Positions 1-44,678 of a stretch of DNA of 64,000 nt are shown one piece after another (position 1 is the stretch's first letter; each line of letters starts with the position of its first letter). Below the pieces are notes generated by a model that saw only the letters and a program-made list of their open reading frames with translations, searched no databases and was not told where the DNA came from. The translations under genes were made by a program, and so were the position numbers. The DNA comes from an uncultured bacterium (GTDB lineage Bacteria; Patescibacteriota; Minisyncoccia; Phycocordibacterales; DATDWN01): positions 82,582-146,581 of the forward strand of contig CAVSGX010000004.1 of the NCBI GenBank assembly GCA_963727715.1. The letters run 5' to 3'.

Positions 1-2495
<2,495 letters not shown>

Positions 2496-2978
2496 GCTCT
2501 TAAATTTCCCATTAGGAAATTTAAAAACCACTTCGCCAAAACATTTTGTAACCAAAAGTGTTTTGGACTTTAACTTCGTCCTGTTATATGAAATGAATCA
2601 TAGAACAGTTTTTACTTTTACTTTTTACCCCATCTGCATGGAAAGACCCCAAACATCTTGCGATATCTGAGAACCACACGATGGAATGTGCCCGATTCAA
2701 AACCTCGGTTTCTCCGCGAACAGTTTTTCAAGCAACTAGGCTTCCTGATTTTCACTGATTTTCATTAAAGCTGTTTTATTTGTTTTTTTCATCTTAGGAT
2801 GAAAAAAACCGCTTTTTAAGCGGGATTTTCGGACAACACTCAAAAGAGGGTCATCTATACCGCTGTAAAAAATGAAGTGAATTAAACATATCTGTAATGA
2901 GAGAAAGTATATACGAAGCAAAATATTTGTCAAATGAAAGCCCTTGTGGAAAAAGTGGGGATAAATAGGGGCCACAAA

Positions 2979-6187: not shown

Positions 6188-7597
6188 TCAATTCTCAACA
6201 AAAAGTCCACGAATGAAATTAAAACCGCGAATCGGCCAAGCGAAAATCCTGCTGATAAACCCCGGGCTAGATGTGGCCACAAAAACAGTGGCCGTTTGAC
6301 TGGAATTATTTGTTGCTGGTGGAATTTTGGTCTGTGATTTTGCTAGAGCCGGCGCTGAAATTGATGTTGAATTTTTTGGTATTTCTGCCGAGGCTAATGA
6401 AAACATCTGGGTAGGTATTGTTGTGGTTGAATTTATTTCCGATTGTAGTGAGGCTAATTTCTGACGAACACTTGAAATGCCGGTCAAAATGTCGTTTAGA
6501 TCCCCAATTGAAGTGGTGGAAATTACACTATTTGTTGCGACAATATTTTGACCGGGCAGACTGGCGTAGGTTTGGCCGAGTTGGTTTCTTATTTGCAAAT
6601 CGCCGGAGCCGAAGCCCAGATCAGTCAGATCATCGGCGAAAATAATTTTTTGGCCATCTAGTATTAAGGTGTCTTTAGGGAAAATAAATGACTTATTGGA
6701 CGAACCGAGAAGCCATCCTTCTAGATTTATTTCTGCCCCAGAATTGTTTGCCACTTCCAAACCGCCAGAAACTTTTCGAATGCTGATTTTCGGGTCAACC
6801 ACCAAAACTGTCAGCCGATCCGCGGCCATCTGATCAGAAGCGTTTGCGTTAACCACCACGGAATATTTCCCCGGAAACTTGTAGGCGTGATGAACAAGAC
6901 TGCCCGCATCGGTTGATCCATCGCCAAAAGACCATTCATAGTTGATTGAGTTTGAAATGATACCTTGCGTTTTAACGGGTTTAACAACGAACGTCAGATC
7001 ATTGCCGACAGAAGTCAAACGGTCTCGCCCGCACGATATTTCAAAATCAATTGTTATCTCGTCACTCGGTAAGGAAGCCGGAGAGGAGTTGGCCGACAAA
7101 TTTGAAGTAGTATTATTCTGGTTGTCTGTGCTGGTACTTTGATCTGTTGTGGTAGCGGTAGTTGTGGTTGATGTTTGATCTCCCCCGGGAACAGGTTGGC
7201 CTATGTAAATATGTTGACTTATGGTAGTAATCTGCACTTTAGCTTTGCTCAAAACCACTGCGGTGATGACAAAATCACCAGCTGTGGAATCTTCATAATA
7301 AACAGCGCGATTGGAATCACCGGTAGAGATATAGGCGCTTTTCAGCAGACCTCCAGTGCTGGTCAAAAATTGTCCTGTCGGTGAGGAAGAAGTGAAATCG
7401 AGATATGTCGTTTCGGTCACCGGACTGCTGGACTGCACATTTATTTTGCCAGACATTTGGCCCGCCGGCACACTTTGCGGATCAGTGCTGAAAGTAAATG
7501 AATTGTCCGCAAAAACCACCGACAAAATTGGTAAAAATATAAAAATGGATACAACAAAGAACAAATATTTAAAATTTCTCATATATAAGTTAGACAT
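6188..7597 (-). CDS. Secreted / membrane-anchored surface protein with a PKD-like and a lamin-tail (LTD)-like domain.
   Basis: N-terminal signal/TM segment. WSFGDGSTD...HAYKFPGKYSVVV is a PKD signature. NLEGWLLGSSNKSFIFPKDTLILDGQ is an LTD-like motif. Thr/Ser-rich linker. Confidence 0.6.
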   Translation of the reverse strand: MSNLYMRNFKYLFFVVSIFIFLPILSVVFADNSFTFSTDPQSVPAGQMSGKINVQSSSPVTETTYLDFTSSSPTGQFLTSTGGLLKSAYISTGDSNRAVYYEDSTAGDFVITAVVLSKAKVQITTISQHIYIGQPVPGGDQTSTTTTATTTDQSTSTDNQNNTTSNLSANSSPASLPSDEITIDFEISCGRDRLTSVGNDLTFVVKPVKTQGIISNSINYEWSFGDGSTDAGSLVHHAYKFPGKYSVVVNANASDQMAADRLTVLVVDPKISIRKVSGGLEVANNSGAEINLEGWLLGSSNKSFIFPKDTLILDGQKIIFADDLTDLGFGSGDLQIRNQLGQTYASLPGQNIVATNSVISTTSIGDLNDILTGISSVRQKLASLQSEINSTTTIPTQMFSLASAEIPKNSTSISAPALAKSQTKIPPATNNSSQTATVFVATSSPGFISRIFAWPIRGFNFIRGLFVEN

Positions 7598-7691
7598 TAT
7601 ATACGCTCCTCGGCTCGGAAATAAAATTTGCTAATTTTATTTCACTGGCCATATGTCGTTAATAAAAAATCCATAAAAGCTCAGGTGTCTT

Positions 7692-7850
7692 TTATGGTTC
7701 ATTCGTAGCGGCAGTTTGTATAGCTGGAGCAGTAGGTTTGTTTTTATCCTGATAAGCCCGAAGAGCCGCCACTACAATTAAACTAATAATAATGATGGCT
7801 GCAAAACCAAGCAAAAATTTCAAAAAATCTTTGTCAAAGTATTGCAACAT
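7692..7850 (-). CDS. Small hypothetical membrane protein (52 aa). Not in the ORF track because it is shorter than 60 aa.
   Basis: ATG at 7850; single hydrophobic helix (FLLGFAAIIIISLIVVAAL). Coding status is uncertain. Confidence 0.25.
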   Translation of the reverse strand: MLQYFDKDFLKFLLGFAAIIIISLIVVAALRAYQDKNKPTAPAIQTAATNEP

Positions 7851-7897
7851 AAAAATATTTTAACAAAGAAATTTTTTTGAAGCAATGTTGATAATTA

Positions 7898-8070
7898 TAA
7901 AATCTCGCTTAGCTATTTCCTTTTTGGATACGCTAGTTCGGCCAGCGCCGAACTCGCTCCTGTCCTCGGCCTTGCCTTGTCAAGAGCCCCGTCCAAAAAG
8001 GCGGGGTCTTGACAAGACCATGCTCAAGTCCTGCGGAGTCTCCAAAAAGGAAATAGCTAAGCGAGATTTT
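7898..8070. repeat. Long-hairpin intergenic repeat, family 1, copy 2.
   Basis: The arm aaatctcgcttagctatttcctttttgga is complementary to tccaaaaaggaaatagctaagcgagattt. The core GCGCCGAACTCGCTCCTGTCCTCGGC...TTGTCAAGAGCCCCG..CGGGGTCTTGACAAG is shared with the other copies. Confidence 0.8.
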
Positions 8071-8083
8071 GTTCAGTGATATT

Positions 8084-8797
8084 CTATTGGCTCAAACCGG
8101 CTTTGTATTGGAGAAGTGATGGGTCGTTTGGAATCTTGGTAAGACCTTGGTTGATAATATCCAGAGCTTTAGCCGAGTTCAATTCAATGTTGTGATAAAC
8201 TTGAGCCAATTGAATGTAGAGGTAGGTCTGGGTCGGACCGTTGGCAATAGCTTGCTTGTAATATTTTTCGGCTGTGGTTGTATCTTTCAAAAACCAAGCA
8301 TACAAATCACCCAAGTCACCAAAAGAAATGTAGTTGGTCGGTGAAAGTTTTCCGGCGTATTGCCAAGCGACGATTGTCGCTTGATAATCCCCCGTCATTT
8401 TTCTGTAGATACCTAAATTTATCCAACTGTCAAAATCAGCCGGATTTTTCAAAAGCGCCGTCTGCAAAACAGAAACCTTTTGTTCCACCATTTGCTTTTG
8501 TTCATCCGTCATAGAAACGTTCGGGCCGAAAGAAACTTTGGCCGTCAAATCCGGAATCGGCAAAGGAACATTGTTGGGAACTTGTTCAACTTTAAAATCG
8601 CCGTTACTAGAAATGTTCACACCGGTGTTGCCAATTTCTTTTGTTGTAGTGTTCCCCGTGGTAGTGGTTGATAAGGAAAAATTTGTATTTTCGTTTGGAA
8701 CATTTTTAGATCTTCTATCAAAAGCAATGTATAAAACTAATAAAATTCCAATGATAATAATGCTTATAATAATTTTTTGCGTTTTTGTTAATTTCAT
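8084..8797 (-). CDS. Membrane-anchored TPR-repeat protein.
   Basis: N-terminal TM helix (IIISIIIIGILLVLYIAF), then TPR-like helical repeats (W..lG..Y...gdY..Ai..yq.A). Confidence 0.55.
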   Translation of the reverse strand: MKLTKTQKIIISIIIIGILLVLYIAFDRRSKNVPNENTNFSLSTTTTGNTTTKEIGNTGVNISSNGDFKVEQVPNNVPLPIPDLTAKVSFGPNVSMTDEQKQMVEQKVSVLQTALLKNPADFDSWINLGIYRKMTGDYQATIVAWQYAGKLSPTNYISFGDLGDLYAWFLKDTTTAEKYYKQAIANGPTQTYLYIQLAQVYHNIELNSAKALDIINQGLTKIPNDPSLLQYKAGLSQ

Positions 8798-8825
8798 ATC
8801 GGATATACTAGCATATTTTTATAAA

Positions 8826-8862
8826 ACAAAAAACCAACCCGATTTTGAAGGTTGGTTTTTTG
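8826..8862 (-). terminator. Rho-independent terminator downstream of the 8881-9750 gene. The hairpin is flanked by A- and T-runs, so it could act in both directions.
   Basis: ccaacc-cgattttgaa-ggttgg hairpin followed by ttttttgttttt. Confidence 0.6.
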
Positions 8863-8880
8863 TTTTTATCAAATTTTTAA

Positions 8881-9750
8881 TTAAAGTCCTTTTAGACTGG
8901 CGATTTCATTGGCTTTGGCTCTGGTTTTCGGGCCAAAATTGCCATAACCAACTACTCCCGGCCCGGCTAAACCATATTTGACTTGGAATTTTTGGATAGC
9001 GACTTTGGTGGCCGTGCCAAAATAATTGGTTTCGTGACCCGGCGAGCCGGCGCCTGTGGCGACAATTTGTGTGTCCGGATCCGAATTGAGAATTTTTTGC
9101 AAGTGCAAAACGTCGGCGCTACGGTTACCGACATAAAGGTTTTTAGTAAACACTCCAGAACCGACTACTCCCGTCGTCCCAACACTAGCCATGCCAAGTT
9201 GCGCCCGCAAAGAGTTGACTGTGGCAAGCAACGAGGCAATTTGGGATTGCAGATTAGTTGTTGATGTGTTTGTGTTTGTTGTCACAACCGGTATGTAAGA
9301 AGGTCCGCCTCCACCTCCTCCGCCCGATGCGACTGGTCCGTTGCCCCCGCCAGATGAGGTGGTGGTAGTTGTTGTGGTGTCGCAAGTGCTGGATCCGGGA
9401 GTAACAGTTTCGGTGCCCGAACCATCAGCCGTTGAACCAACAGTCAAGAGTGATTGGGTGGCCGAACATTGATAAGCTATCAGATTCCCGCCAACAGCGG
9501 CCAAAACTTTTCTATCAGGTGACACGACTGTCAAAGTGGAACCGGACGGTAAACTAACTGAAAAACTGGTCGGCCCAATACTGATTGACTGCACAACGTC
9601 ACTGCTTCCGGAAACATCCAGGCTAACTCCACCTACCGAAATCACAGCATCAGTGGTTAGCGTCACATCATTGTATGCCGCCGAAACAATGAACGGCGTC
9701 ATTGCGATACAGACCGCCAGAGATGTCATTAAAAATTTATTTTTACTCAT
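8881..9750 (-). CDS. Secreted protein with a C-terminal peptidoglycan-binding domain (PG_binding_1-like).
   Basis: Signal peptide, then a Thr/Gly-rich region. The C-terminal module ...LYVGNRSADVLHLQKILNSDPDTQIVATGAGSPGHETNYFGTATKVAIQKFQVKYGL is paralogous to the N-terminal module of the 1208-aa protein. Confidence 0.65.
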   Translation of the reverse strand: MSKNKFLMTSLAVCIAMTPFIVSAAYNDVTLTTDAVISVGGVSLDVSGSSDVVQSISIGPTSFSVSLPSGSTLTVVSPDRKVLAAVGGNLIAYQCSATQSLLTVGSTADGSGTETVTPGSSTCDTTTTTTTSSGGGNGPVASGGGGGGGPSYIPVVTTNTNTSTTNLQSQIASLLATVNSLRAQLGMASVGTTGVVGSGVFTKNLYVGNRSADVLHLQKILNSDPDTQIVATGAGSPGHETNYFGTATKVAIQKFQVKYGLAGPGVVGYGNFGPKTRAKANEIASLKGL

Positions 9751-9838
9751 AATTTTACCTAAATTAACTGGTAAAGACTAAATCTTCATTATCCTTTCGA
9801 CCTGAAACAAGGCTGGATAATGAGTTAATTCAGGTTAT

Positions 9839-10477
9839 TTAGTTGCACGCTCCATATCTGACAATCGGAGCAACACCGACAGTTGTTTGCGCAGTGGTTG
9901 ATGCCGCAAATGTCATGTTGAGCAATGTATTTGTGCTGGTGGCGTTGAATTGCAAGCAAAAACCTTGCGTGCCCGAGGATGAAGTAAAGACCGCTGTACT
10001 GGTGGCTGTAGTGCTTTCCATGATAGTGCTTGAAGCATACAGCTGATTGGCAACAGTTAATGTCCTAAGAGATGTTGCCCCAGTAACTCCGAGTGTGCCG
10101 GCTACTGTAGCATTACCGAGAAGGGCAACTACTTGACTTGGCTGACCAATGTTGATGGTGGTAGCTGTGCTTGTGCCGATATTTAGGACACCTGCAGCAG
10201 CTGTATCAAAAGCATAGCCGGCTGGCACAGTAATGTTACCGCTGGTAGCCAGCGTGCTTGAAGCGTTAATTGCGCCAGCGATGGTTAAAGTGCTGTAGCC
10301 AGTAATTGCGCCGGTGACGGCCAATGAACTAGTGGCGTAGATATTGCCACCAGTCAGAACATCGGTGCTTATGGTGGTTGTGGCATAAGCTGCCGCTACT
10401 GTCAGCGACATCCCAATCAAAAAAACAAAAACATAAAAAAGATATCCCTTTCTTAAAAACATAGATTCTAAATCCAT
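9839..10477 (-). CDS. Secreted Thr/Ser/Gly-rich repeat protein (fibre / S-layer-like).
   Basis: Signal peptide followed by low-complexity repeats of the form TGG..A.S.LA.TG. No enzymatic motifs. Confidence 0.45.
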   Translation of the reverse strand: MDLESMFLRKGYLFYVFVFLIGMSLTVAAAYATTTISTDVLTGGNIYATSSLAVTGAITGYSTLTIAGAINASSTLATSGNITVPAGYAFDTAAAGVLNIGTSTATTINIGQPSQVVALLGNATVAGTLGVTGATSLRTLTVANQLYASSTIMESTTATSTAVFTSSSGTQGFCLQFNATSTNTLLNMTFAASTTAQTTVGVAPIVRYGACN

Positions 10478-10658
10478 AATAATTTTAATAGCTAATAATA
10501 GAGACGGAGATTAAACTCCTGCGTATAAATTATAACATATGTAAAGTGTTGACATATAAAATTGTGGATAACTTTTTAGGTAAACAAAAAACACTCCCGA
10601 AAGAGCGCTTTTTGTTTTAGCGTTAAGCTAAGTTTGATCAATTCAACCAATCAAGAGA

Positions 10659-13600
10659 TTAGTTTGATCGAGTCCAGAGCAGACCTGAAGATGGGAGTCC
10701 TACAATACCGTATCCTGTTGTCCAATCGTTTGAACTAAAGACGGATGTAGAGGTTGCATTTGGTGACCATACAAAATTGTATGTCGTGCCTGCACCCACT
10801 CCTGTCGCCGTGCTTGTCGCAGCAGCGGTATCTGCCAACATCTTTGTTACAACTGAACCTCCGTAAGTGCCGGAGATACCCGTTACTGAACCGCGAAGTT
10901 CAAAGTATCGAGTCTGGCCGGCTGGAACTTCCACCGGGTTCGAAGCTGTTCTAAATGTCAAAGTTGTCTTTGAACTGTCCGAGGCACATGTGCTGCCGGC
11001 ATTTGTCGTGTTGACAGTGTCGGAGCCACTTCCCGTACAGATATTTGATGCTGAACTTGTTGCCAAGTTTTCATCAATTTGGCCACCGTTGCTTGTTCCA
11101 CCTTTAGCGAAGTTTCCTGACATAGCTGTGGAATAACCTGAATCAGTGTAGCCAAACAAACCGACATCCCTGACTGTGATAGTTGTGGTAGCCAGAGTGA
11201 ATGTGAACTTGTAGAGACCAGCATCACCATGCGAGTCTGCCGTGATGGCAAATCTCATAAGGTGACCGTCAGCAATACCCGTTGAGGACAATGTGCCGAG
11301 AGTAAATGTTGGAATCGTGTTGAACACTCTGACACCGGCCGAACCTGTGGCCGCGCCGGTTCTGATTGTTGAACCAGATGAAGCGCCAGAACCTTCGGTG
11401 CTACTGAGATCAATCTTGATCAAATCACCTTCCGTACCAGACTGGTTTGTGCCGATGTCGGCCAAGTCAGCCTTGACGGTGATGAGAGTATCAATATTGT
11501 TTTGTAGAACGAGTGGGCTGGAAAGCGTCGAGGTAGCAATTGTGCCGCCACTGGCAAAGGTAGCCGTGCCGAGCAAAGTGGAACCTTGATACAAGTAGAC
11601 TTGTGACAAGTCCCCGGCCACGTTTGAGCTGTTTCCTGCGGCGGTACTTGTCAGAACCAAACCGATTTTATTCAGATTGACACTTTCATTTGTAGCTCGC
11701 AGTTTGATAACAGACATTATCTGACCAGTCGTGCCTCCAGCGGCCAGAGCATAGCCAGGGGATGACGAGTCGATTGAAGCCGACAAAGAACCAGTGCTGG
11801 CAGTCATCAGACCTCCGTTAGCTGTGCCAAACGTAGGTGTAACTGAATTTCCTGATGTGATACCTGTCACAGTGTAATGAGCGGTGTTGGTGTCGTTGGT
11901 AGCATAGTAAGTCGCGTTTGTTGTCGGCGAGCTGGCGATATTGCACTCAAGAGCCAACGTCACGATCGTTCCTTTTGGAACTGTCAACGAATTGTCAAAG
12001 CTGAATGTATGGTATGTCCCGCTTGTCAGCGAGTTTACAACATTTGAACCAGTGTTGAGTTGCGTTTGGCCATTGTTCAAAGTGCAACCAGTGAGGTCGC
12101 CAATTGAACTATTGCCCGCTGTAACTGTTACAGGGAAAGATGACAAGCGAAGATCTTCGCCAGACTGTGAAGCGTCGAGTTGGTAGTTGGCCAAAACGAA
12201 GTTCTGGGCACCACCGACAACGCTTTGGGCTGCTGGTTGAGCTGAAATATTAACAGCGAGAGTAGCGGCCCTGACTGTCATCTGATTCATAGAGATGACT
12301 GTTGTTTGACCTGAAAGACTGACAGTGTTGCCAGTGCTTTGACCGGTAACGTTTGTCCAATCTGTGTAAGGCTCGGTAAAGACATTGACTGTCGTACCAT
12401 TAGCCCAACCTGATGGGAGTTTGCCTTTCAAAGTGTAGACATATCGGCCTACTGGGAAGGTTACTGTGTCTGTGAAGTGAATCACAGCGTAACTTGTCGT
12501 TGATGGTACCACACCGGCGTGCGTAGTACTGCCATCGCCGACAGCGACATCAACTGGGCCAGCCACAACTGCGCCGTTTTGGTCAACAAGCGAAACGCTT
12601 GTGATTTGCGAAGCTGGGGATAACGCACTAGCGACATTACCAATTGTCGAGGAAGTTGCCACAACGAAGTACATGCTCTGAATGGAAACTGGTTCACCAG
12701 CAAAGTTTGTAGCAAAACCGCCGAGTACCTGATTAGGTACATTGACAGCAAGGTTTTGTGAAGCCACTTCATTGGCCTTACCAATAAGAGTAACTGAACC
12801 GGCAGTAATGCTGGCCTGTGAACCTTCAAACCAAGGATTGCTTGATGTGTTGATTACAGTGGCATGATTGGCTAGTGTCAGAACAACCCCAGTTCCTACT
12901 GGAGCTGTAATGCCATAGCCGTATGTGTTGCCGACTAAGTATAAGTCTGTGTTTTTATAGACATCGAATTCTGCTGTGCGGCCAGATGAATTGGAGCCGA
13001 CAATGTCGCCTTGGATGTACATATCAACTGAATTTCCTTTGGTGATAACAATACCGCCAGGGAAAACTGTTGAGTAATACTTTCCGGTTGCGTCAACCAC
13101 TGTCGGATATGATGTGCCGTTAACCACGGTCACAACATTGGCCAAGTCGCCTGAACCGACTGAACCAGTCTGATTCCAGCTGATTGACTTGAGTGTCAAG
13201 TCTTCGGCTGAACCAGCGGTCACTTTGAAACCGCTGAAACGATAGCCTGTTGTGCCGATTGGCTCGCTGGCTCCGTTGTTAGGGTCAAAAGAAGATGTGT
13301 TGATTGTGGCTGAACCGAGAGTAAGTGAAGCGTTGATCGTCTGCTGTGCTCCGGTGATAGGCAGAGAACCAGCCACTGTTGCGGAAGTGTTGACTGCCAC
13401 AACATTTAGACTGGCGACCTGACCGGCATAGTTTGTAAGTGATGATGCCATGTTGCCAGCCACTGTGAATGTCTCAGATGTGCCGGCTTTGATGACAAAT
13501 GGATTACCAATAACTGCTTGATGATTTGAGTTCAAAGTCTTGGCAATACCAACTTGCATTCCTGTTGGGTCAACCAAGACGATACCAGCGAAGACAGCGT

Positions 13601-14285
13601 CCTGTGCTAAACCACTTCTCTGAACTGTGATGGAGTTAACCGTCACATCAGATGCCCCAGCTGTCAAAGTGACAGTTGTGAATGGAACACGATTAGCGCT
13701 TTGAGGGGCCAATGAATTCATTGGTTGAACACCGGCCATAACTGTCAAATTGCCACCTGTTGGCATATTTGCTGTGGTGGTAGCGTACCTGTAGTCTGTG
13801 GTTGTAGTTGTAGTTGTGTTTGTTGTGCCACACATCGCGTTGAGCTTAGCTCGTGTGATAGCACCGACATAACCTGCTACCGGTGAAATACCATTGGCTG
13901 TCTGGAATTTCATCACCGCAGCTTTTGTCATCGGACCGAAGGTTGATGTTTCCATCCCCGGTGATCCCGCGCCTGTTGCGGCAACTTGTGTGGCAGCACT
14001 CTGGTTCAGAACTTTTTGCAAATTCATCACATCAGTGCCTTTGCTACCGACAGTCAAGTTTGTGTTGAATGTGTAGCATGTGCCTGTGGTAGCTGTGCTA
14101 CCAGTTGCGGCTGAAAGTTGAGCCTGAAGCGACTGAATTGTCGCCATCAAACTGTTGATCTGGGCTTGTATGTCAGCTGCTGTAGCGGCGCCCGCAATCA
14201 TAGGTGCGAAAGCGACTGCCATCATGGCAACTCCTACAAAACCAGTAACCAACTTTACAGCTGTTGATTTTGTTAAATTCTTCAT
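10659..14285 (-). CDS. Giant (1208 aa) cell-surface protein. Signal peptide, coiled-coil, PG-binding domain, then a long Thr/Ser-rich region with probable Ig-like repeats.
   Basis: N-terminal MKNLTKSTAVKLVTGFVGVAMMAVAFAPMIAGA. The segment ADIQAQINSLMATIQSLQAQLSAA plus the PG-binding motif (GTDVMNLQKVLNQ...GAGSPGMETSTFGPMTKAAVMKFQ). The rest is extremely T/S/G/N-rich. Confidence 0.7.
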   Translation of the reverse strand: MKNLTKSTAVKLVTGFVGVAMMAVAFAPMIAGAATAADIQAQINSLMATIQSLQAQLSAATGSTATTGTCYTFNTNLTVGSKGTDVMNLQKVLNQSAATQVAATGAGSPGMETSTFGPMTKAAVMKFQTANGISPVAGYVGAITRAKLNAMCGTTNTTTTTTTDYRYATTTANMPTGGNLTVMAGVQPMNSLAPQSANRVPFTTVTLTAGASDVTVNSITVQRSGLAQDAVFAGIVLVDPTGMQVGIAKTLNSNHQAVIGNPFVIKAGTSETFTVAGNMASSLTNYAGQVASLNVVAVNTSATVAGSLPITGAQQTINASLTLGSATINTSSFDPNNGASEPIGTTGYRFSGFKVTAGSAEDLTLKSISWNQTGSVGSGDLANVVTVVNGTSYPTVVDATGKYYSTVFPGGIVITKGNSVDMYIQGDIVGSNSSGRTAEFDVYKNTDLYLVGNTYGYGITAPVGTGVVLTLANHATVINTSSNPWFEGSQASITAGSVTLIGKANEVASQNLAVNVPNQVLGGFATNFAGEPVSIQSMYFVVATSSTIGNVASALSPASQITSVSLVDQNGAVVAGPVDVAVGDGSTTHAGVVPSTTSYAVIHFTDTVTFPVGRYVYTLKGKLPSGWANGTTVNVFTEPYTDWTNVTGQSTGNTVSLSGQTTVISMNQMTVRAATLAVNISAQPAAQSVVGGAQNFVLANYQLDASQSGEDLRLSSFPVTVTAGNSSIGDLTGCTLNNGQTQLNTGSNVVNSLTSGTYHTFSFDNSLTVPKGTIVTLALECNIASSPTTNATYYATNDTNTAHYTVTGITSGNSVTPTFGTANGGLMTASTGSLSASIDSSSPGYALAAGGTTGQIMSVIKLRATNESVNLNKIGLVLTSTAAGNSSNVAGDLSQVYLYQGSTLLGTATFASGGTIATSTLSSPLVLQNNIDTLITVKADLADIGTNQSGTEGDLIKIDLSSTEGSGASSGSTIRTGAATGSAGVRVFNTIPTFTLGTLSSTGIADGHLMRFAITADSHGDAGLYKFTFTLATTTITVRDVGLFGYTDSGYSTAMSGNFAKGGTSNGGQIDENLATSSASNICTGSGSDTVNTTNAGSTCASDSSKTTLTFRTASNPVEVPAGQTRYFELRGSVTGISGTYGGSVVTKMLADTAAATSTATGVGAGTTYNFVWSPNATSTSVFSSNDWTTGYGIVGLPSSGLLWTRSN

Positions 14286-14894
14286 ATATATGTTTTTAAT
14301 AATGAAATAATTCCTCCGGCAATTACTAATAATTTTTTAATGGCGCCGAAAAAATTACTTTTTGCAAAACAATTAACTGCTAATGTTTATCGCGGTTCAT
14401 ACACATACAAATTTTTGTACGTGTAACTCGCGCGTCATACTAATTTTTCTCGCTTTATATTTAATCCAGCTCCACTTTTGAAACAATGTTTTACAAACCA
14501 CTTTGACATTCCGTCAAAAGTGGGGCTGGACAAATCGACACAAAACGGAAAAATAGTTGGAAAGGTTTGGACCGAAAAACAACCTTTAAATCTTGGTTGG
14601 ATAAAGTCACGCGGAAAAACAAACAAATTTACACCAAAAGACTCTATGCAGTTGTCAAAGTACTGCTCCCAGACATTATATATTCTTCCCGCGATACTAA
14701 CAAACGCGGTCGTGTGGATAACTTAGAATATACGCCCATAATATACGATAAAAGTCGCATAAATGGCTCAAGACTAAACCTGATCCACATAGGAGAAGTA
14801 TCGCAAAAATGGGTTCAAAAGTCAATATATTGACATTTATTGACATTAAGGGGCCAAATTGATGTCAATTCTACAATGGAAATTCGTTGGCAAA

Positions 14895-15662
14895 TCAAAC
14901 AGCCAAAGAATATCTGCTCCATCTCCTTTCCCCCTTTTTTGTTATAACCCCGCTTTCAATTAGGGAAATAAGCTCACGTTGTATTGTCTTTTCACTGCAA
15001 TCTCTTATGGTTTGGGCTATGTCCTTAATATTCATTTCTTTCCCTTTTTTCAGAAGACCAATTATAATATTTTGCCTATTTGTCTTTTTAAACATAAATT
15101 GGTTGTTTTCTCCCAATTTTTTGTCTTTTATGAGAGTTGGTGAATTCGCCACTCTTATGTTCTCTTTACCGTACTCGAAATTGAAAGAGCCACGCGAAAT
15201 TTCGAAAAAAGATTTTGGAAAAATTTTACTGGGAGAATTTTCGCTGGTTGATTTAACTTCGTCCAAAACCCTAGCTAAATTAAGAAATTCCTCTTGGAGA
15301 ATAGTAAAATTCATAACAGATACCAAACTGGATTTAGAAGCCACTTCAAACAAAGAAATAATATTCAAAATTTGGTTTTTGGTATCGTCAACAAATGTTT
15401 GTTGGGGAACTGAATTTTTACATCCTAAAATAAAAGACAGTAATTCAGAGACTTTTTTACGAAGAACCCACTTTAAAGACTCGTTGTCAGAAAACAAATT
15501 GGTCACCATATATGTCGCAGTAGCCAATTTTTCTGTCTTTTTGTAGACAAAGATAAAATATTCATCTTTCTCAAAAAATGAGATGTGGTCAATGTTTTTA
15601 TTGAAACCGGTAGAAAGATTGTTTTGGGTTGGTTCTATTTTATTGTCTTTTTGTGGTTCCAT
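14895..15662 (-). CDS. Hypothetical protein with a C-terminal winged-HTH DNA-binding domain.
   Basis: The C-terminal segment NIKDIAQTIRDCSEKTIQRELISLIESGVITKKGERRWSRYSL resembles DeoR/HTH_11-type wHTH. Confidence 0.5.
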   Translation of the reverse strand: MEPQKDNKIEPTQNNLSTGFNKNIDHISFFEKDEYFIFVYKKTEKLATATYMVTNLFSDNESLKWVLRKKVSELLSFILGCKNSVPQQTFVDDTKNQILNIISLFEVASKSSLVSVMNFTILQEEFLNLARVLDEVKSTSENSPSKIFPKSFFEISRGSFNFEYGKENIRVANSPTLIKDKKLGENNQFMFKKTNRQNIIIGLLKKGKEMNIKDIAQTIRDCSEKTIQRELISLIESGVITKKGERRWSRYSLAV

Positions 15663-20284: not shown

Positions 20285-21339
20285 CTTTCCAAAAGCGACA
20301 GGAATGAAATCAAGATTTTGTTGGACAAAAAATATTCACAGAGAGACATTGCTCTGTCCTTAGGCAGAAGCAACTCAACCATTTCGGAAGAAATCAAGCT
20401 TGGCTCGGTTAGAAGCAAATATGATCCGCTCAAAGCTCACCACAAAGCATATGTCAGACGGTGGCAGTCCAAATACCAAGCGATGAAAATAGTGGAAGAT
20501 ACAGAACTGAGAAATTTTGTGGAGAAAAAACTTTTGAAAGACGATTCACCGGTCAATATTTCAGGCAGAATCAAGAAGCATGAAAAATATCTGACAAACA
20601 TTTCCAAAAACAGCATATACAGATACATCGAAAGCCTGTATGGCAGAAGAATTGAAAATCACAGGAACAAAAGAAAACAGAGGAGAAAAAATTGCAGACC
20701 AAAGTCGGAAAAGCTCAAAGACAGAGTTTTCATCGCCAAAAGACCTAAATATATAGCCACTAGAAAAAGAATTGGTGATGCTGAAGCTGATTTCATTGTT
20801 TCCGGCAAAAGTGGCAAAGGAATATTGCTTGTTGTTGCAGACCGAAAGTCTAGGACTCCATTTTTGGAGAAAATACTTCCAACCACCATTACTGAAGTTG
20901 AAAAGGGGTTTTTGAAAATCAAAGAGAGATTTCCTGAACTGAAAACTTTGACTTTGGACAACGACATTCTTTTCAGGCATCATGTGAGACTTGAAAAACT
21001 TTTGAATATCAAAATATATTTTTGCAACCCGTACCACTCTTGGGAAAAAGGCACTGTTGAAAAAGTGAACCGAGAGATACGAAAAGACATTCCGAAAGGC
21101 AGCAACATTTCCAAATATTCCAGGCAATTCATCTGTTCGATTGAAGAGAAACTTCAAAACAAAATATACAAATGTTTGAACTACCACACCCCTTTTGAAG
21201 TCTTGAACAAGCACAGAAAAAGAAAAAACACCTCTGACTCCAATTAGTCAGGGTGTTCGGTTTGAGGGGGGTTCGCAGGTGCTACCTCCACTTGTCATTA
21301 TACACCTTTTAAATTTAAAGTCAAGTGGATTTTGAGGCC
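20210..21339 (+). mobile_element. IS30-family insertion sequence, copy A. Ends are approximate; putative imperfect terminal inverted repeats ggccctagattcc..cacttg / caagtggattttgaggcc.
   Basis: Encodes the IS30-type DDE transposase (see CDS 20256-21247). Size ~1.1 kb, typical for IS30. Confidence 0.5.
20256..21247 (+). CDS. IS30-family transposase, apparently frameshifted at the N-terminus. ATG 20256 is followed by an A7 run; the HTH continues in the -1 frame, and the ORF track starts at TTG 20318.
   Basis: The C-terminus LTLDNDILFRHHVRLEKLLNIKIYFCNPYHSWEKGTVEKVNREIRKDIPKG is colinear with the second IS30 transposase (36871-37815). The in-frame upstream sequence FSHLSKSDRNEIKILL aligns with FKHLSYEERVLISAL of copy B but has no in-frame ATG. 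Confidence 0.7.
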
Positions 21340-31252: not shown

Positions 31253-33250
31253 TTATTTCACAACTCTTTCATCACCACTTTGAAAACCCGGGTCTGAGTA
31301 ATGGGTGGTCACATCTCCGGCTGAAGCGTCAACTTCGTGCTCTACATAAGTGTCGGTGGCCGATACGTTTGATGAGGGCAGAAGATCAATTGGCGATCCG
31401 ATTTCGGTCAGACTTGGGGTCAGACCGACCTGGAAAGAGACGCTTCTTGGTGAGTAGGTAAAGCCGGTGCCGGCAGAAACATTCCCAACTAACCAAGTAA
31501 TGAGGCGCGAGTCCGGGTTGTAGGAAATGCGTTCACTTGCCGGAGAAGTTTGGTTTCCCCAAACAAGACCAACTGGCAAAGTGGCTGTGACCGTCGCGCC
31601 GGAAAGATCATTGGAAGTGTTGGTCAGCGTCCATGTGATAGTGTAGGTTGATTCGTTGTTGGCTTTCGGCGGAATCGGTCCAGTGTTTTGAAAAGGCCCG
31701 ACCAGACGATAAGATTGGGCGGATAAGTTGAGATTGGAAAGGAATTTAAAAGTCATATTTTGAGTAGAAGAAATGTCGGACGCCGATAATCCTGTTCGAC
31801 TGCCGGACATGACGACCGATATGTCAATGTGTGGGTTTTCAATATTCTGGATTTGCGACCGGTTGGAAATTGGAGAAAGCGAAAAAGAAACTTGGCCAGA
31901 ATCACCTGGTGAAATTTCCGACAATGATCCCGTGGTGTTTTTGTCCCATAAAATTGAATTGTCTGACGAACTGTAAAATCCCCCGTTGTTAGCATTTACC
32001 TGGGCCGGATCAAAAACATTGCCGGAAAGTTTTACACTGATTTTATTGTTGACGATTTTATCAGGCAAAGTGTTTTGAAAACCTAAAATCAAAGAGACCG
32101 GCTGACCAAGCGAAGTGAATGTTTGGCTGGCATTTGATGAGTTTACAATAGACAAACCAAAAAATGATTTGCGTATGCCGACGGTGGCCAACTGCTCGGA
32201 AAGTGGATTGGTAAAATTCAGTTGGCCGGAAACTTCCGGCACGCCGACGGAAACATCAAAAGACCTGTCCTCCATATCTTGCCCGACTAATGTCCCGGTG
32301 ATGGTCAAATTTTTATTATCGCCGTTTTTAAAATCACCCAAGGACCACATGGCCCCAACCGAACCGGCCTTGGCGTCGGTAGTAGTTGATAAATTTGGAC
32401 TACTGGTGCTGGTGGAAGTGTTGAGATTGTCAGCCAGTGTCAGATTTCTAACAGGTTTTATATTTGAACTTTCATAGGTAAAACCGTAAGGATACTCCAC
32501 TTTGACCAGAGTGCCGGAAATGACAACATTGGAATTGGAGGTCAGGTTGATGGACAGGGTAACCTCCTGTCCAGAATTTACTTCCTGCGGATAAGAAACA
32601 TTCAAAAGTAAAGGTGAAGAGCTTATTGAAACGGCGTAATCTTTCTCTTTGGAAAAAACGGCAGCGGAGCCGACCACGGTGTATTCCAATTTCATAACAA
32701 TGTTTTGAACCGAATCTTTCGGCCCGAATAAAATTGCCCTAATAGACTGATTCTTGACTTGGCCTTTGGCAATACCATTCAGTGAAAATTGATCGCGGGT
32801 AAGAGGGGCGCCACCCCCGCCAGCCACCTGAGCGTTTGGCGGATAAGAAATAGTCAGTTTGACATTTTGCAAATCAACACGATTTTGATTGACCACAGAC
32901 AACCCCAAATCCAATTCTTCGCCGGAAGAGACAGAGCTCGGACCGATAATCTTAATGTCAACATTGTTGGAAGAAATCATATTAAACCCCCCGAAAAATA
33001 TAAAAGCGGCGACACCCAGAGCCAAAATAAAAAATATGACCGAAATCAGGAAAAATTTATTGAAAAATGAATTATTTTTTTGCGACATTTTTTTGTCCGA
33101 AAAATCAAAACCTTTATCATCTCCCCAATCCGGTGGCACAGTATAATCTTGACCCGAAACAGGAGTTCTTTTTTCCTTTGGCACCATATCTTCATTGCGC
33201 GAGTAAAGTGATTGTTTTAGATTTTCCAATCTATCTTTTTTGAAATCCAT
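31253..33250 (-). CDS. Membrane-anchored extracellular Thr/Ser-rich protein (hypothetical). Probable start at Met 33250.
   Basis: Cytoplasmic N-terminus, one TM helix ([24 protein letters not shown]) and a long beta-rich ectodomain. The ORF-track start at 33412 would overlap rplB. Confidence 0.5.
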
Positions 33251-33312
33251 TGCTGAATTATAACACAAAAATTTTTTCAAAAACACCACGAGGGTGGTGT
33301 TTTTGTTTGTTT

Positions 33313-34155
33313 CTATTTTCTTTTGCCAACTTTGCGACGAGAGATGACAAATTTGTTTGAGTATTTTTTCGGTGTGCGAGTTTTTTGACCCTTGCCTGTC
33401 GGTCGGCCCCATGCCGAAACGGCCCGACGGCGACCACGGCCTTGTCTGCCTTCTCCACCGCCGTGCGGGTGATCTACCGGGTTCATGGCTGTGCCACGAA
33501 CGGTCGGGCGAATGCCAAGCCAGCGCGAGCGTCCGGCTTTACCGAGATTGACCAAACGATTTTCTTCATTGGACAAAACGCCGATTGAAGCGAAGCAGGT
33601 TTCTTTGACTCTGTGAATTTCCGAGGACGGCATCTTGAGGTCAACCATCCCGGCATCCTTGGCCACCACTTCCAGATAATTCCCCGCCGAGCGTCCGAAC
33701 TTGGCCCCGCCCTGCGGTTTGACTTCAACATTGTAAACAAAAGTGCCGACATTTATATTGCGCAGAGGCAAGCGATTACCAACTTTTTGTTCGGCCGTCT
33801 CGGAGGTCAAAAACATTTCTCCAATTTTTACACCTTGTGGGATCAGAACATATCTTTTTTCTCCATCTCGATACTGGACCAAACCGATGAAAGCGCTGCG
33901 GTTCGGATCGTATTCAATCGTTTTCAAAGAGTAAGGAATACCTATTTTGTCATATTTAAAATCAACTTCGCGGAAAAGTCTTTTGTGCCCGGCGCCTTTG
34001 TGGCGAGTGGTCACTTTGCCGTGATGGTTTCTACCGACAGCCCGTTTAAATCCACGAGTCAGAGATTTTTCTGGTTTTTGAGTGGTCAAAATATCGCCAA
34101 AAGAAATGGTGGTCATGCCTCTACGCGATTTTGATGTTGGTTTGTATTTTTTCAT
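33313..34155 (-). CDS. rplB: Ribosomal protein L2.
   Basis: …GRNHHGKVTTRHKGAGHKRLFR… and …PHGGGEGR…. Confidence 0.97.
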   Translation of the reverse strand: MKKYKPTSKSRRGMTTISFGDILTTQKPEKSLTRGFKRAVGRNHHGKVTTRHKGAGHKRLFREVDFKYDKIGIPYSLKTIEYDPNRSAFIGLVQYRDGEKRYVLIPQGVKIGEMFLTSETAEQKVGNRLPLRNINVGTFVYNVEVKPQGGAKFGRSAGNYLEVVAKDAGMVDLKMPSSEIHRVKETCFASIGVLSNEENRLVNLGKAGRSRWLGIRPTVRGTAMNPVDHPHGGGEGRQGRGRRRAVSAWGRPTGKGQKTRTPKKYSNKFVISRRKVGKRK

Positions 34156-41176: not shown

Positions 41177-44100
41177 TTAATTATGTTTTGTCGCCATTAG
41201 GAGTGCGGTCTTAAAACTTTTTTTGGCCAGTTTGAAAGCTCTATCATATACGGTGTCGGCCATCAAAAAGTTGTGGTGAAGTTTTGGATCAAGGTTAAGT
41301 TTCAAACCTTTTTCTGTTAACAAACCTTTGGCAATTTCCTTGCCGTTGAGAAGAGCATGGATTTCGTCCGGATGACCCGGGACACCATGAATGAGACTTA
41401 ATCTGCCATTTTCAAACGCAAAGTTGGTTGTACTCTTTGGGACCGGGATGTTCATTCTGTCTTGAGCTATGACAAAAGCCTCACGAATCGGTGCGCTTTT
41501 TGGTCCATCTTGGAATCTATCGAGTAGTTGCATCCCGCTTGCGCCATTTGGCAATTTGACGGACTGTGCTACCGCTTCACCCTGAACAAAAATTTGTTTT
41601 TGTCCCCCGGCCACTTCAACAACACTCGTATGAAATTTCCCTTCTGCACCATTTGCTGCTTTGACAATGTGATCAAACTCAATGGCACCGGGCGTTTTAG
41701 GTGTGTTGGCTAGATTTTCGCCGACATGAGAAAAATTATGGATGTTGACCGGAGCGTGCGCTAAATCGGTATCAACCGGTTTGGAAAAATCAAGTGGTTT
41801 ATAATTTCCTGACACCTTATACGGTTCTGACACCAAAAATTCATTTTGGGGCTCGGTAACATCGGCAGGTTTCGGCGCCACAATTTCGTGCGGAACTGGC
41901 GCTTTCGGAGCAAACATTTTGTCGGAGTGTAGTGATTCAAAATTGTGCTCGCCTGTGCCAATAATTTCTGTTGGCTTGCCGGCGGCGGTTAGGTGTTCCA
42001 ATTTCAAATGACCTTCAGCGTCAACAGCCAAAGCTTCGCCTTTCAGCCCCATCGCGCTCGTGCCATGTTTGGCATCCCAAAAGCCATACTCTTGTGCCAG
42101 TTTGGTGCTCGGAGTTTCCACAAAATGTTTAACACCAGCCGGCATTTTACCCGCGTCAGGATATTGCGCTTTCAGTTTGTCTTTCATATCGTCAAATGTC
42201 TGGATAAATCCGCGGGAAGAAAGTTTGACTTCAACCACATTGGTCGCCTCCGGCATCTTCGGTCCAAGCGGAGGAGTAGCAACTTTGGGAGCGGGCGGCT
42301 GAGTGACGACTTCAGATACTTTCGGCGCAGGTGGTGTTTCGGCGGGCATTGTTAGTTTGACGGTTGGTGGCGCTTCGGTTAGAACAGGAGGTTTTGCTAC
42401 GGTTGGAGTTTCAGCCGGCATAGCTGGCTTTGCCGTGACAACTTCGGCGTGCGTTGTCCCGGTTTTTGGTGTGTTTTCAGAGTGGAACATTTTGTAAAAG
42501 AAACCATGTTGTCCAGATTGGACAGCGCCCGGAACATTGCCAAATTGATTGGCCATGGTTAAATCAGTGGCTATATTGACCCCGGCGCCGACAGCCACCA
42601 TAACCGCAGCCTTTTTTAAAATGCCACGCTTTTTTCTGTTTTCTTCTTTCTCTTTCAATCCCATCAACTCTTTTTCTTTGATTTCATAATTGTCTTCAGT
42701 CAATCCTTCAGCATATCTTCTCAAATTTTTTTGTTTCTTCCTTTCCAAACTCCATTTGGTGATTGAATCCACACCTTTGCCTGCCGCTTGACCAGCCAAA
42801 GCGCCGCTAAGAGATCTCGCCCCTCTGTAAGCCAAAGTTGTGCCGATACCAACAGTAGCCACAGTGCCGAGAGTCATACCAAGGCCAGTCATAACAGCCG
42901 TAGTCAAAGCGATTCTGGCCGGCAAAGGCAACTTGGCCCATTTTTCAAATGATTTGCCAATAATTCCCTTCTCCAAAGGCGGGACATTCTCGGCGATTCT
43001 TTTTTGCAAAACTTCCCATTCCTTTTCGGCTTGAGTAATAGCTCTACACTTGAAAATTGCGGATGCTTTTTCTTCATTTGACAAATTTTCATCCAAACCA
43101 AGATCATTTATTTCTTTTTCAATCCCGGGCATCGAAAAAATTTCTTCCATCTTTTTTTTCTTGGATTGGATATAGACGGCTTCGGCCGCTTCTAGTCGAA
43201 CTTTGACTTCTGTCATGTCTTGCGGAGTAACCTTATCAAATCTGTGAAATATTTCGTCTATTTTTTCTTCTAGACCAACTTTGGACGCCAAACCCCTGGT
43301 GGTTCTGTGGATAAAACTTCTGTTATTCATTATGTCCTCAGTTGTCTCACCTAAGCCTACACTGTTGGCCAAATCACTGGCTTGTTTATAAACCCATTTT
43401 TTCTTTTCCCGATTTTTATTTTTAAACTCCACCAAAACACTGGCATAAGTACCTCGCGCCTCGGCCAATTCCATGTCCACTTCGGAAAGTGCTTCCGCCA
43501 CTAGTGGAGCATTTTCAACCGCCCCAGACAGCACCGGCTCAGGTGGTAATGGACCAGCTACTGGTATTACTTCCGGACTGGCAGAAGGTTGCGGGGTTAC
43601 TTCCTCTTCTTGCCCAGGTTGCTGAAATTCTTCTTCATATTCGGCAAACTCATCAATACCAAAAATACCAAACAGTTCTCTCCTTTCGGCTTTACTTAGG
43701 TGACCTTTCTCAAGGTCAAAATCAATTTCTCTTTCCAATCCTTTTTTCTTGGATTCATACGGCTCAGAACTTCTGGAGGATTCTTCTATGATTGTAATGA
43801 GATTCCCTAAATTGGAATGATCTTCACTCTTGGACAAGGTTACCAAAAATTCAACGGCCTTTTCATATCTCTCTGATTCAGGATTTTCTTTTTGTTCTTC
43901 CGTTGTTTCAAAATTTTTACCGGCAGTTTTCACTGATGTTAACGGTTCTGTCGGTTCTACTTCCGTTTCCGAAGCTGGAATAACAGGTGGAAAAGGTAGG
44001 AAATCTTTGTTTGACACACTCGGAGAATTATCTTCAACTGGGGCTGACTCTTCTTCTGCTGTTATTATCGGCTCAACAATATGTTCAGAAGTTATTGGTT

Positions 44101-44482
44101 GATTTCCATTTAAGGCTTCAATTATTTTTTCATACCCCTTTATTTTTTCAACAAAACTGGACGCCCTTTCTTTTTTTTCTTCTTCATTATAATCGTTATT
44201 AGACAAAATAAATTCCAAAGTCCTTCTATCATTTGCAAGTCTTTCTTCAAAAAATTTTACTGGGTTAGATTCTAATGTAGATATTTCCCCCCGACAAAAT
44301 TCAACCATTCTTTCATCGTTTTTTGCACCAAAATGTACTAGTTGTTCTTTGTATCTTTGAAGTTCTTCATTAATACGAACCGTGACAAATTCTGGTCTGT
44401 GTTCCCTAGGATTCATATGATCCTCCAATTCTTGTTTGAGCGCCTTTGGATCTATATTTAAAGCATTTGGAGACTCCATGTT
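41177..44482 (-). CDS. Giant hypothetical protein (~1100 aa): acidic coiled-coil N-terminal half, Pro-rich linkers, two or more TM segments in the middle, C-terminal globular part. The start is uncertain (44482 or 44539).
   Basis: Hydrophobic segments LTTAVMTGLGMTLGTVATVGIGTTLAY and AAVMVAVGAGVNIATDL. Low-complexity PAPK/PPAP repeats. No catalytic motifs recognised. Confidence 0.5.
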   Translation of the reverse strand, partial: NMESPNALNIDPKALKQELEDHMNPREHRPEFVTVRINEELQRYKEQLVHFGAKNDERMVEFCRGEISTLESNPVKFFEERLANDRRTLEFILSNNDYNEEEKKERASSFVEKIKGYEKIIEALNGNQPITSEHIVEPIITAEEESAPVEDNSPSVSNKDFLPFPPVIPASETEVEPTEPLTSVKTAGKNFETTEEQKENPESERYEKAVEFLVTLSKSEDHSNLGNLITIIEESSRSSEPYESKKKGLEREIDFDLEKGHLSKAERRELFGIFGIDEFAEYEEEFQQPGQEEEVTPQPSASPEVIPVAGPLPPEPVLSGAVENAPLVAEALSEVDMELAEARGTYASVLVEFKNKNREKKKWVYKQASDLANSVGLGETTEDIMNNRSFIHRTTRGLASKVGLEEKIDEIFHRFDKVTPQDMTEVKVRLEAAEAVYIQSKKKKMEEIFSMPGIEKEINDLGLDENLSNEEKASAIFKCRAITQAEKEWEVLQKRIAENVPPLEKGIIGKSFEKWAKLPLPARIALTTAVMTGLGMTLGTVATVGIGTTLAYRGARSLSGALAGQAAGKGVDSITKWSLERKKQKNLRRYAEGLTEDNYEIKEKELMGLKEKEENRKKRGILKKAAVMVAVGAGVNIATDLTMANQFGNVPGAVQSGQHGFFYKMFHSENTPKTGTTHAEVVTAKPAMPAETPTVAKPPVLTEAPPTVKLTMPAETPPAPKVSEVVTQPPAPKVATPPLGPKMPEATNVVEVKLSSRGFIQTFDDMKDKLKAQYPDAGKMPAGVKHFVETPSTKLAQEYGFWDAKHGTSAMGLKGEALAVDAEGHLKLEHLTAAGKPTEIIGTGEHNFESLHSDKMFAPKAPVPHEIVAPKPADVTEPQNEFLVSEPYKVSGNYKPLDFSKPVDTDLAHAPVNIHNFSHVGENLANTPKTPGAIEFDHIVKAANGAEGKFHTSVVEVAGGQKQIFVQGEAVAQSVKLPNGASGMQLLDRFQDGPKSAPIREAFVIAQDRMNIPVPKSTTNFAFENGRLSLIHGVPGHPDEIHALLNGKEIAKGLLTEKGLKLNLDPKLHHNFLMADTVYDRAFKLAKKSFKTALLMATKHN

Positions 44483-44678
44483 GCTTTCATTATATTCCCC
44501 TATAAAAATATTCGCAACAAAAAAGATCCTATTTTGCATTTCTCGAAAAGCAATCTGTCTAGCCCTGCTGGGCTAGTGAACTTCTCGTCGTCCAAGAAAA
44601 CAATCCACGGATTACCGTGGTTGTTTTCTAAACTCCTGCGAAAGGCTTTTCTTGAAACACAAAAAGGATTTGCGTGAA

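Follow-up and report, generated by a model that had tools for sequence, protein, structure and literature searches.

What does the run of secreted and cell-envelope protein genes on the minus strand at positions 6188-14285 build? The genes lie in a 64,000-nucleotide (nt) stretch of contig CAVSGX010000004.1 (positions 82,582 to 146,581; assembly GCA_963727715.1) from an uncultured, Zambryskibacteria-like member of the Paceibacteria (Parcubacteria) within the Patescibacteria, or Candidate Phyla Radiation (CPR), and this whole stretch is the window referred to below. Much of bacterial diversity belongs to the CPR/Patescibacteria, whose cell envelope has been described as unclear (PMC5220378). Groundwater CPR cells imaged by cryogenic transmission electron microscopy bear a periodic surface layer and lack an outer membrane (PMC7906910), and the protein of the imaged layer has never been identified experimentally. 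We propose, with a probability of roughly 0.6, that this is a surface layer (S-layer) locus and that its 1208-amino-acid (aa) product (10659-14285) is the lattice-forming S-layer protein; the window contains this leading candidate in a clean, full-length form. The original prediction, made from the sequence without database searches, had seen a surface-architecture locus, possibly an S-layer, and is supported by the 47% full-length identity of the 1208-aa protein to a predicted S-layer protein, A0A0G1WWP5.

That identity runs end to end in the BLASTP alignment with this Kaiserbacteria protein (922 bits), and a cluster look-up equated the homologue, P0276 in our set, with UniRef100_A0A0G1WWP5 / KKW23338.1. 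A 2024 preprint in which S-layer lattices were predicted by AlphaFold-multimer lists Patescibacteria proteins of 1131-1274 aa, A0A0G1WWP5 among them, as predicted p6 (hexagonal) S-layer proteins; members in its Table S2 include Kaiserbacteria A0A0G1WWP5 (1173 aa), Nealsonbacteria A0A1G2EN61 (1131 aa) and Parcubacteria GMX59286.1 (1185 aa) (bioRxiv 10.1101/2024.05.28.596244). According to its supplement, these proteins have six Ig-like assembly domains and form a hexagonal spiral pyramid with an 18.5-nm lattice, many homologues occur across Patescibacteria classes, and homologues rank among the top five expressed signal-peptide genes in two of three Paceibacteria by metatranscriptomics, the source transcriptome study being Kuroda 2024 (PMC10936435). 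Because of its end-to-end identity to a listed protein, we place the 1208-aa protein, on sequence grounds, as another member of this predicted Patescibacteria six-Ig-domain S-layer family: it has full-length homology to a listed member, six Ig-like domains in one chain, and a signal peptide with an anchoring segment. In length, signal peptide, Ig-like domain number and phylum it is like the family as the consulted parts of the preprint describe it, with no difference in kind. Closure of the p6 lattice through hexamer and trimer or dimer interfaces has been modelled for homologues. The locus mainly confirms and annotates the preprint's prediction and is not a new kind of system.

From its N-terminus the protein consists of a signal peptide (residues 1-33, 14187-14285), a helix (residues 37-60, 14106-14177), a PG_binding_1 domain (residues 83-148, 13842-14039), a Thr-rich linker (approximately residues 153-173, 13767-13829) and six Ig-like beta-sandwich domains (residues 176-1208, 10662-13760), all on the minus strand, as are all features below unless stated otherwise. 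The signal peptide was recognised by inspection: the N-terminus, MKNLTKSTAVKLVTGFVGVAMMAVAFAPMIAGA followed by ATAAD, has a basic n-region, a hydrophobic core and an AxA site, judged by eye rather than with a predictor. Pfam scored PG_binding_1 (PF01471) at 33.9 bits against a cut-off of 23, and the three-helix fold was confirmed. A single-chain AlphaFold2 (AF2) model built from a 66-sequence alignment (mean predicted local distance difference test score (pLDDT) 82.7) begins, after the signal peptide, with a long helix at model residues 4-27; a three-helix domain (51-117) comes next, and a disordered Thr-rich linker connects it to an all-beta region (146-1175). The all-beta region splits into six blocks, so that the Ig-like repeats of the giant surface protein number six in this model and about 1030 of its 1208 residues belong to Ig-like sandwiches. 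Profile-profile comparison showed domains D1-D5 to be distant repeats of one domain (D4-D5 97.5%, D2-D4 92%, D3-D4 86%, D1-D4 80%) and D6 to be divergent from them. The composition of the protein is typical of S-layer proteins, with an isoelectric point of 5.1, 8.5% charged residues, and T, G, S, A and V making up 57% of the sequence.

Searching the beta region against the PDB with Foldseek returned only generic tandem-Ig matches (TM score <0.2), which assigned no specific function to the beta domains, and PDB sequence searches gave matches confined to the PG-binding domain. The S-layer glycoprotein of Haloferax volcanii, csg (PDB 7ptp), appeared at rank 23 of the Foldseek matches. It also has six Ig-like domains in a chain and forms hexagonal pyramids, and the preprint notes a 'striking resemblance'. 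However, csg is archaeal, has no detectable sequence similarity to the window protein and is lipid-anchored through a C-terminal PGF-CTERM motif, whereas the window protein carries an N-terminal PG_binding_1 domain; according to the preprint, the predicted apex is the C-terminal end in the Patescibacteria family and the N-terminal end in csg. Convergent use of Ig-like domains most likely accounts for the resemblance.

Homologues of the giant protein number more than 1465; the best 120 are all full-length at 50-64% identity, and the named ones among these belong to Zambryskibacteria, Kaiserbacteria, Paceibacterota or Minisyncoccia. Scanning one genome per GTDB species, we found at least 421 species-representative genomes with a homologue that is full-length and 44-64% identical, and 80 of the loci were fetched; together with seven loci from exact look-ups these form a comparison set of 87 loci, which was searched by tblastn with the window proteins. 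Such breadth bears on the alternative that survives best, which we nevertheless consider unlikely: the giant protein and its neighbours could be host-attachment adhesins of an episymbiont, with Ig-like and PKD arrays reaching out to a host and the PG-binding domain gripping the host wall. Kuroda et al. took highly expressed Paceibacteria PG-binding-domain proteins as host-attachment factors (PMC10936435), but the hosts in their study are archaea without murein; in their supplementary table we located a 692-aa Yanofskyibacterium protein, and the family membership of two other PG-binding-domain proteins is the preprint's statement. The tandem Ig-like arrays resemble those of Gram-positive PrgB, antigen I/II and Bap in Foldseek, and PKD and LTD domains are common in adhesins; yet the PG-binding domain lies N-terminally, right after the signal peptide and with a linker before the Ig array, which is the geometry of a self-anchor and not of a distal tip. 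Moreover, host-specific adhesins are usually variable and mobile, whereas this family shows 45-64% full-length identity and a fixed housekeeping synteny in at least 421 species, and homologues are predicted in the preprint to close into p6 lattices. An S-layer can mediate adhesion too, so the two roles are not fully exclusive.

Several points weigh against the S-layer assignment itself. In the literature consulted, including the parts of the preprint available, the family's assignment comes from AlphaFold-multimer prediction and transcript abundance, with no lattice experiment on any member. Full-length conservation of 45-60% across many candidate 'phyla' exceeds what is usual for S-layer proteins. 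The lattice constant measured on CPR cells, 13 nm, suits a shorter three-domain relative better than the six-domain family with its 18.5 nm, as the preprint reports (bioRxiv 10.1101/2024.05.28.596244). Finally, the putative roles of the TPR, helix-turn-helix and small proteins of the locus are drawn from synteny.

The anchor of the giant protein recurs in its neighbourhood. Residues 166-283 of the 289-aa secreted protein (8881-9750) align with residues 38-151 of the giant protein at 48% identity over 118 aa (BLASTP, E=5e-26), far beyond chance, which bears out the earlier claim that the same coiled-coil and PG-binding module occurs C-terminally in the one and N-terminally in the other. The 289-aa protein begins with a beta-rich domain of approximately 100 aa, continues with a Gly/Thr linker and ends in the module (8902-9255). 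PG_binding_1 had been predicted in both proteins, and the giant protein passes; the 289-aa protein reaches only 20.8 bits, just below the cut-off of 23, and its orthologues have a weak match on record, so its membership is held by transitive homology, the segment being 48% identical to a module that does pass. Among genomes with both proteins, modules of the S-layer type are approximately 71% identical among themselves and those of the 289-aa type approximately 46%, with cross-identities of approximately 44%. The latter also have signatures of their own, an inserted LAGPGxxGYGxFGP and a C-terminal KLKGF/L, and in one locus (L083) the helix comes after the PG-binding domain and not before it. 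These identities, signatures and the changed helix order indicate an old duplication followed by domain rearrangement, as judged from the sequences, rather than recent gene conversion, and agree with the module shuffling that had been suggested. The best sequence and fold matches of the PG-binding domain are SleB, a DD-carboxypeptidase, L,D-transpeptidases and phage endolysins. Wall hydrolases such as SleB, the Streptomyces Zn DD-carboxypeptidase (1lbu) and phage endolysins typically carry PG_binding_1; here it sits on a non-enzymatic array of Ig-like domains, after a conserved amphipathic helix. Pfam, NCBIfam, PDB sequence and fold searches found no catalytic domain in the proteins of the block, the enzyme matches covering the PG-binding domain only.

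The combination invites comparison with the S-layer systems of Firmicutes, such as Sap/EA1 and the BSL proteins of Bacillus anthracis, which use SLH domains, and SlpA and the CWP family of Clostridioides difficile, which use CWB2. Like this locus, those systems pair one major lattice protein with accessory surface proteins equipped with a paralogous wall-anchoring module, which can lie at either terminus, and their genes cluster near an S-layer gene with a strong promoter and a long 5' untranslated region (UTR). The anchor here differs, being PG_binding_1 after a coiled-coil helix, and the lattice domains are unrelated; Pfam found no SLH or CWB2 domain in the five proteins at E<=1. The Firmicutes anchors bind a pyruvylated secondary cell-wall polymer, whereas the ligand here is presumably peptidoglycan itself. 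By analogy, then, the locus would work like the SLH and CWB2 systems without being a member of them.

We next asked which genes travel with the S-layer gene. The ORF list gave five minus-strand open reading frames (ORFs), at 6188-7597 (469 aa), 8084-8797 (237 aa), 8881-9750 (289 aa), 9839-10477 (212 aa) and 10659-14285 (1208 aa), and these coordinates match the predicted ones exactly. All five genes of the predicted contiguous block are therefore present, and a sixth, encoding a 52-aa single-pass membrane protein (MLQYFDKDFLKFLLGFAAIIIISLIVVAALRAY...; 7692-7850), had been overlooked; a gene of 45-54 aa is called at the equivalent position in loci L001, L005 and L007. Directly upstream of the giant gene, and outside the block as first delimited, lies a conserved neighbour encoding a 255-aa protein (14895-15662), a candidate regulator with a C-terminal DeoR-like winged helix-turn-helix (wHTH) at residues 196-242 (HTH_DeoR 20.5 bits, cut-off 21). 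The 237-aa protein was correctly described as a membrane-anchored TPR protein: TPR_17 (41.1 bits against 24.4) and TPR_14 (29.2 against 23.5) both exceed their Pfam cut-offs, and an N-terminal hydrophobic helix (KIIISIIIIGILLVLYIAF) precedes them. Its other matches are generic TPR proteins only (PilW, PrsT, MamA and NrfG).

Two further secreted proteins are accessory. The 469-aa protein was predicted to combine PKD and LTD domains, and the PKD part holds at residues 212-266 (PKD_4, PF18911, 37.4 bits against 27; PKD, PF00801, 33.1 against 23.5); the LTD match (PF00932) stays below its cut-off at 23.7 bits against 34.3 (E=6e-5), covering only 46 of 109 profile positions, though the orthologue in L007 has a confident LTD match on record (E<=1e-5). 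The 212-aa protein, secreted or membrane-anchored, had been called a Thr/Ser-rich, fibre-like protein. The first half of that description is broadly right, the repeat protein being rich in Thr, Ala and Ser (T 18.9%, A 14.6%, S 9.9%), and it has no match in Pfam, NCBIfam or PHROG. Its 55 homologues come from Patescibacteria only and carry one to several copies of a YGLDTAxAGxLNIGTTTATxINIG repeat, the copy number being variable, together with alternative Cys-containing C-terminal domains. The AF2 monomer (pLDDT 71) has an N-terminal helix and then an extended repeat chain without secondary structure, so that the fibre is no firmer than plausible and the model would be compatible with an oligomeric fibre or solenoid.

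The 80 loci of the genome scan come from Zambryski-, Kaiser-, Adler-, Yonath-, Taylor- and Nomurabacteria and 'Paceibacterota'. Across all 87 loci gene order is nearly universal: FtsK (divergently oriented relative to the rest), the 255-aa wHTH gene, the giant gene, a variable stretch, TPR, a second variable stretch, L10, L7/L12, a 195-aa protein and a mechanosensitive (MS) channel. Many 'Saccharibacteria' labels in the set stem from bulk submissions, and these loci group among the Paceibacteria-type ones. By tblastn 85 of the 87 loci have the wHTH gene immediately before the giant gene, 82 have TPR downstream of it, and L10 was found in 72; the PKD/LTD protein occurs in 23 (some orthologues with a confident LTD), the 52-aa ORF in 18 (an underestimate, as the query is short), a true 289-aa orthologue, matching in the N-terminal domain, in 11, and the 212-aa protein in 8. 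Distances from the giant gene to TPR and from TPR to L10 vary by several kb. The constant core is thus wHTH, S-layer gene and TPR, with the micro-peptide, and the two variable slots take accessory secreted proteins; the 212-aa, 289-aa and PKD/LTD genes are lineage-variable accessories. Synteny in relatives, which the original prediction had named as a check, upholds the giant and TPR genes together with the upstream wHTH gene and shows that the five genes are not a fixed unit; its PKD, TPR and PG-binding calls survive, and more than 80 related genomes carry the genes in intact form, so that neither outcome named there as a refutation came about. As a separate observation, the S-layer locus of a closed 859-kb Kaiserbacteria chromosome (L039; CP066682.1, 3600-22893) lies within approximately 20 kb of the record start, and if that record starts at the replication origin the locus would be origin-proximal, with a high gene dosage.

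The 609-nt intergenic region between the wHTH and S-layer genes (14286-14894) holds the promoter and a long 5' UTR. The window promoter comprises a TTATCCACA box (14713-14721), a -35-like TTTGTTAGT (14696-14704) and an extended -10 element TATATAAT (14675-14682), and the promoter scan gave 10/12 matches. In relatives the corresponding spacer spans 355-990 nt; of 82 loci, 72 have exactly one perfect TTATCCACA there, sense-oriented in every case, and the box is 28 times as dense there as elsewhere in the loci; aligned on the box, the consensus reads AGTTATCCACA-N6-8-TTTGAAAGT-N15-17-TATATAAT. The sequence thus describes a putative near-consensus sigma-70-type promoter with an upstream element equal to the DnaA-box consensus. 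That perfect 9-mer occurs twice in the window, at 14713-14721 and 10563-10571, both on the minus strand, and the second copy precedes the 212-aa gene, where the same 12-mer AAGTTATCCACA and the same box-to-TATAAT layout (10530-10574) form that gene's promoter. Related loci also have the box, again in the sense orientation, before the MS-channel gene in 21 cases and within the variable slots in 17. From this pattern the box looks like an element associated with the promoters of a small regulon. A replication origin was considered and rejected: there is one box per promoter and not a cluster, it is sense-oriented at a fixed distance to -35/-10, and it recurs before other genes. Candidate binders would be DnaA or, equally plausibly, the adjacent wHTH protein.

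With the -10 element at 14675-14682 and the start codon at 14285, the S-layer gene has an inferred 5' UTR of approximately 385 nt (14286-14670); the distance from the box to the start codon is 180-671 nt in relatives. S-layer genes of Firmicutes, Thermus and Aeromonas are known to have long 5' UTRs and promoters that are strong or multiple. A five-way alignment revealed conserved blocks in the UTR, for example TTTGAAAAC..ATATGGATTTTAAAAAC, GTGTCGA and GATTAGTATG, and the UTR matched no Rfam family. Possible alternative hairpins (CCAGCCCCACTTTTGAC / GTCAAAGTGG / CAAAAGTGGAGCTGG) and a Shine-Dalgarno-like GGAGG approximately 27 nt from the ATG, unusually far, were also noted. The promoter with its DnaA-box 9-mer, the long 5' UTR and the same box before the 212-aa/289-aa pair appear to be new detail, not found in the literature searched, and in the consulted parts of the preprint we found nothing on where the gene lies in the genome, on its promoter, on accessory proteins with a paralogous anchor or on TPR and HTH partners.

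The block is divided into several transcription units and does not form a single operon. An intrinsic terminator of the S-layer gene (10582-10617), with a 16-bp stem and then a U-run, lies in a fragment that folds at -29.1 kcal/mol (z=-6.2), and a second, 3' of the 289-aa gene (8823-8866), has an 18-bp stem and a U-run and folds at -22.7 kcal/mol (z=-6.1 against shuffles); each is a GC-containing hairpin with a U-run that is stabler than its shuffles, as rho-independent termination requires. The second is the terminator that had been placed between the TPR and PG-binding genes, and our pattern scanner passed over it only owing to its 8-nt loop limit. The gap between the 212-aa and 289-aa genes contains no terminator in its sequence, and the two are therefore probably one transcript that ends at 8823-8866. 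Downstream of the TPR gene lies a hyper-stable hairpin element of approximately 172 nt (7900-8070), with perfect 30-bp closing inverted arms and inner hairpins, one of them terminator-like (8005-8019), that folds at -109.3 kcal/mol (z=-14.2) and probably acts as the terminator of that gene. Its arms occur once in the window, an arm search found the element in none of the 87 related loci or the JGI metagenome contigs, and it matched no Rfam family. The element may be a miniature inverted-repeat transposable element (MITE)-like insertion, an unusually strong terminator or a structured RNA of an unrecognised kind; the arm search in those loci and contigs turned up no further copy that would mark a repeated mobile element.

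These separate promoters and terminators would suit a chance run of unrelated secreted-protein genes that fell into a variable slot beside one conserved surface-protein gene, and so would the comings and goings of the 212-aa, 289-aa and PKD/LTD genes, the shifting distances, and a universal synteny confined to the giant, TPR and upstream HTH genes. We regard such a coincidence as improbable. The 289-aa protein has a specific paralogous anchor in common with the S-layer protein, the 212-aa/289-aa unit repeats the AAGTTATCCACA...TATAAT layout of the S-layer gene, the inserted genes all encode envelope proteins, and all of the genes, including a 54-aa ORF, keep the same order in a relative (L001) with an S-layer protein of only 59% identity. 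It is just as improbable that the proteins are extracellular enzymes targeted to PG, or a scaffold for division or wall remodelling, in place of a surface coat, as the hydrolase-type PG_binding_1 domain, an FtsK gene adjoining in every locus and the DnaA-box-like element might suggest. The searches found no catalytic domain in any of the proteins, Ig-like sandwiches dominate the giant protein, and the FtsK gene is transcribed divergently and belongs to a broader housekeeping synteny (RecA, L10, L7/L12), which leaves its adjacency with little weight.

On the S-layer reading, the 1208-aa protein would be exported by Sec via its cleavable signal peptide, and its N-terminal helix and three-helix PG_binding_1 domain would tether it non-covalently to the cell's own peptidoglycan. 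The Thr-rich linker may then space the protein from the wall, outside which the six Ig-like domains would assemble into a hexagonal lattice. Its gene would be an independent and probably very highly expressed unit, given a near-consensus promoter, a long 5' UTR and a strong terminator of its own, with the wHTH protein and the box possibly controlling expression. The TPR membrane protein and the 52-aa micro-peptide may serve assembly or anchoring. The 212-aa and 289-aa genes are probably co-transcribed from the second copy of the promoter box, and the 289-aa protein may hold to the same wall zone as the S-layer anchor through its C-terminal module, while the PKD/LTD protein would be a further variable secreted component.

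We tentatively suggest, as a doubtful extension of this scheme, that the wHTH, S-layer, TPR and 52-aa-peptide genes are a dedicated S-layer biogenesis cassette across Paceibacteria. In this cassette the perfect DnaA box might tie the making of the coat to the cell cycle or to the initiation of replication in these minimal cells, or might be the operator of the adjacent wHTH regulator, defining a small envelope regulon that includes the accessory and mechanosensitive-channel genes with the same box; the shared helix and PG-binding module might allow accessory proteins to assemble together with the S-layer anchor under the lattice. Whatever the mechanism, the comparison of 87 loci gives the S-layer gene a constant place in the genome, with conserved partners, and adds a sharply delimited promoter that bears a DnaA-box-like element, a long 5' UTR and anchor-sharing accessory proteins, a useful new annotation of the conserved cassette whose features could aid expression and display tools for the few cultivable Patescibacteria.

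Elsewhere in the window we noted several further features. A 23S rRNA match (412-2513, minus strand) spans model positions 1-2925 in only approximately 2.1 kb and scores only 790 bits, and its 3' end overlaps a tRNA-Ala call (anticodon tgc; 370-446, minus strand) by approximately 35 nt; the match may reflect a CPR 23S rRNA that is strongly reduced or rearranged, or else be an artefact of the alignment. The L7/L12 ORF (5045-5527, minus strand) is 160 aa long against 127-132 aa in related loci, the extra approximately 30-40 N-terminal residues being rich in Thr, Lys and Glu and either a real extension or the product of an upstream in-frame start. Between recA and efp, close neighbours in related loci, a 309-aa ORF (20318-21247, plus strand) has an HTH_38 match and a weak integrase-core (rve) match like an IS30-type transposase, and is probably an insertion sequence. 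A 1120-aa ORF (41177-44539, minus strand) is acidic and charge-rich, with mid-protein hydrophobic helices, a Pro-rich segment and no Pfam match; as a candidate S-layer relative it was rejected, hhalign finding it unrelated to the S-layer family. Additionally, a 719-aa ORF (31253-33412, minus strand) gave a borderline DUF11 match (23.2 bits, cut-off 24.6) and is possibly another surface protein.

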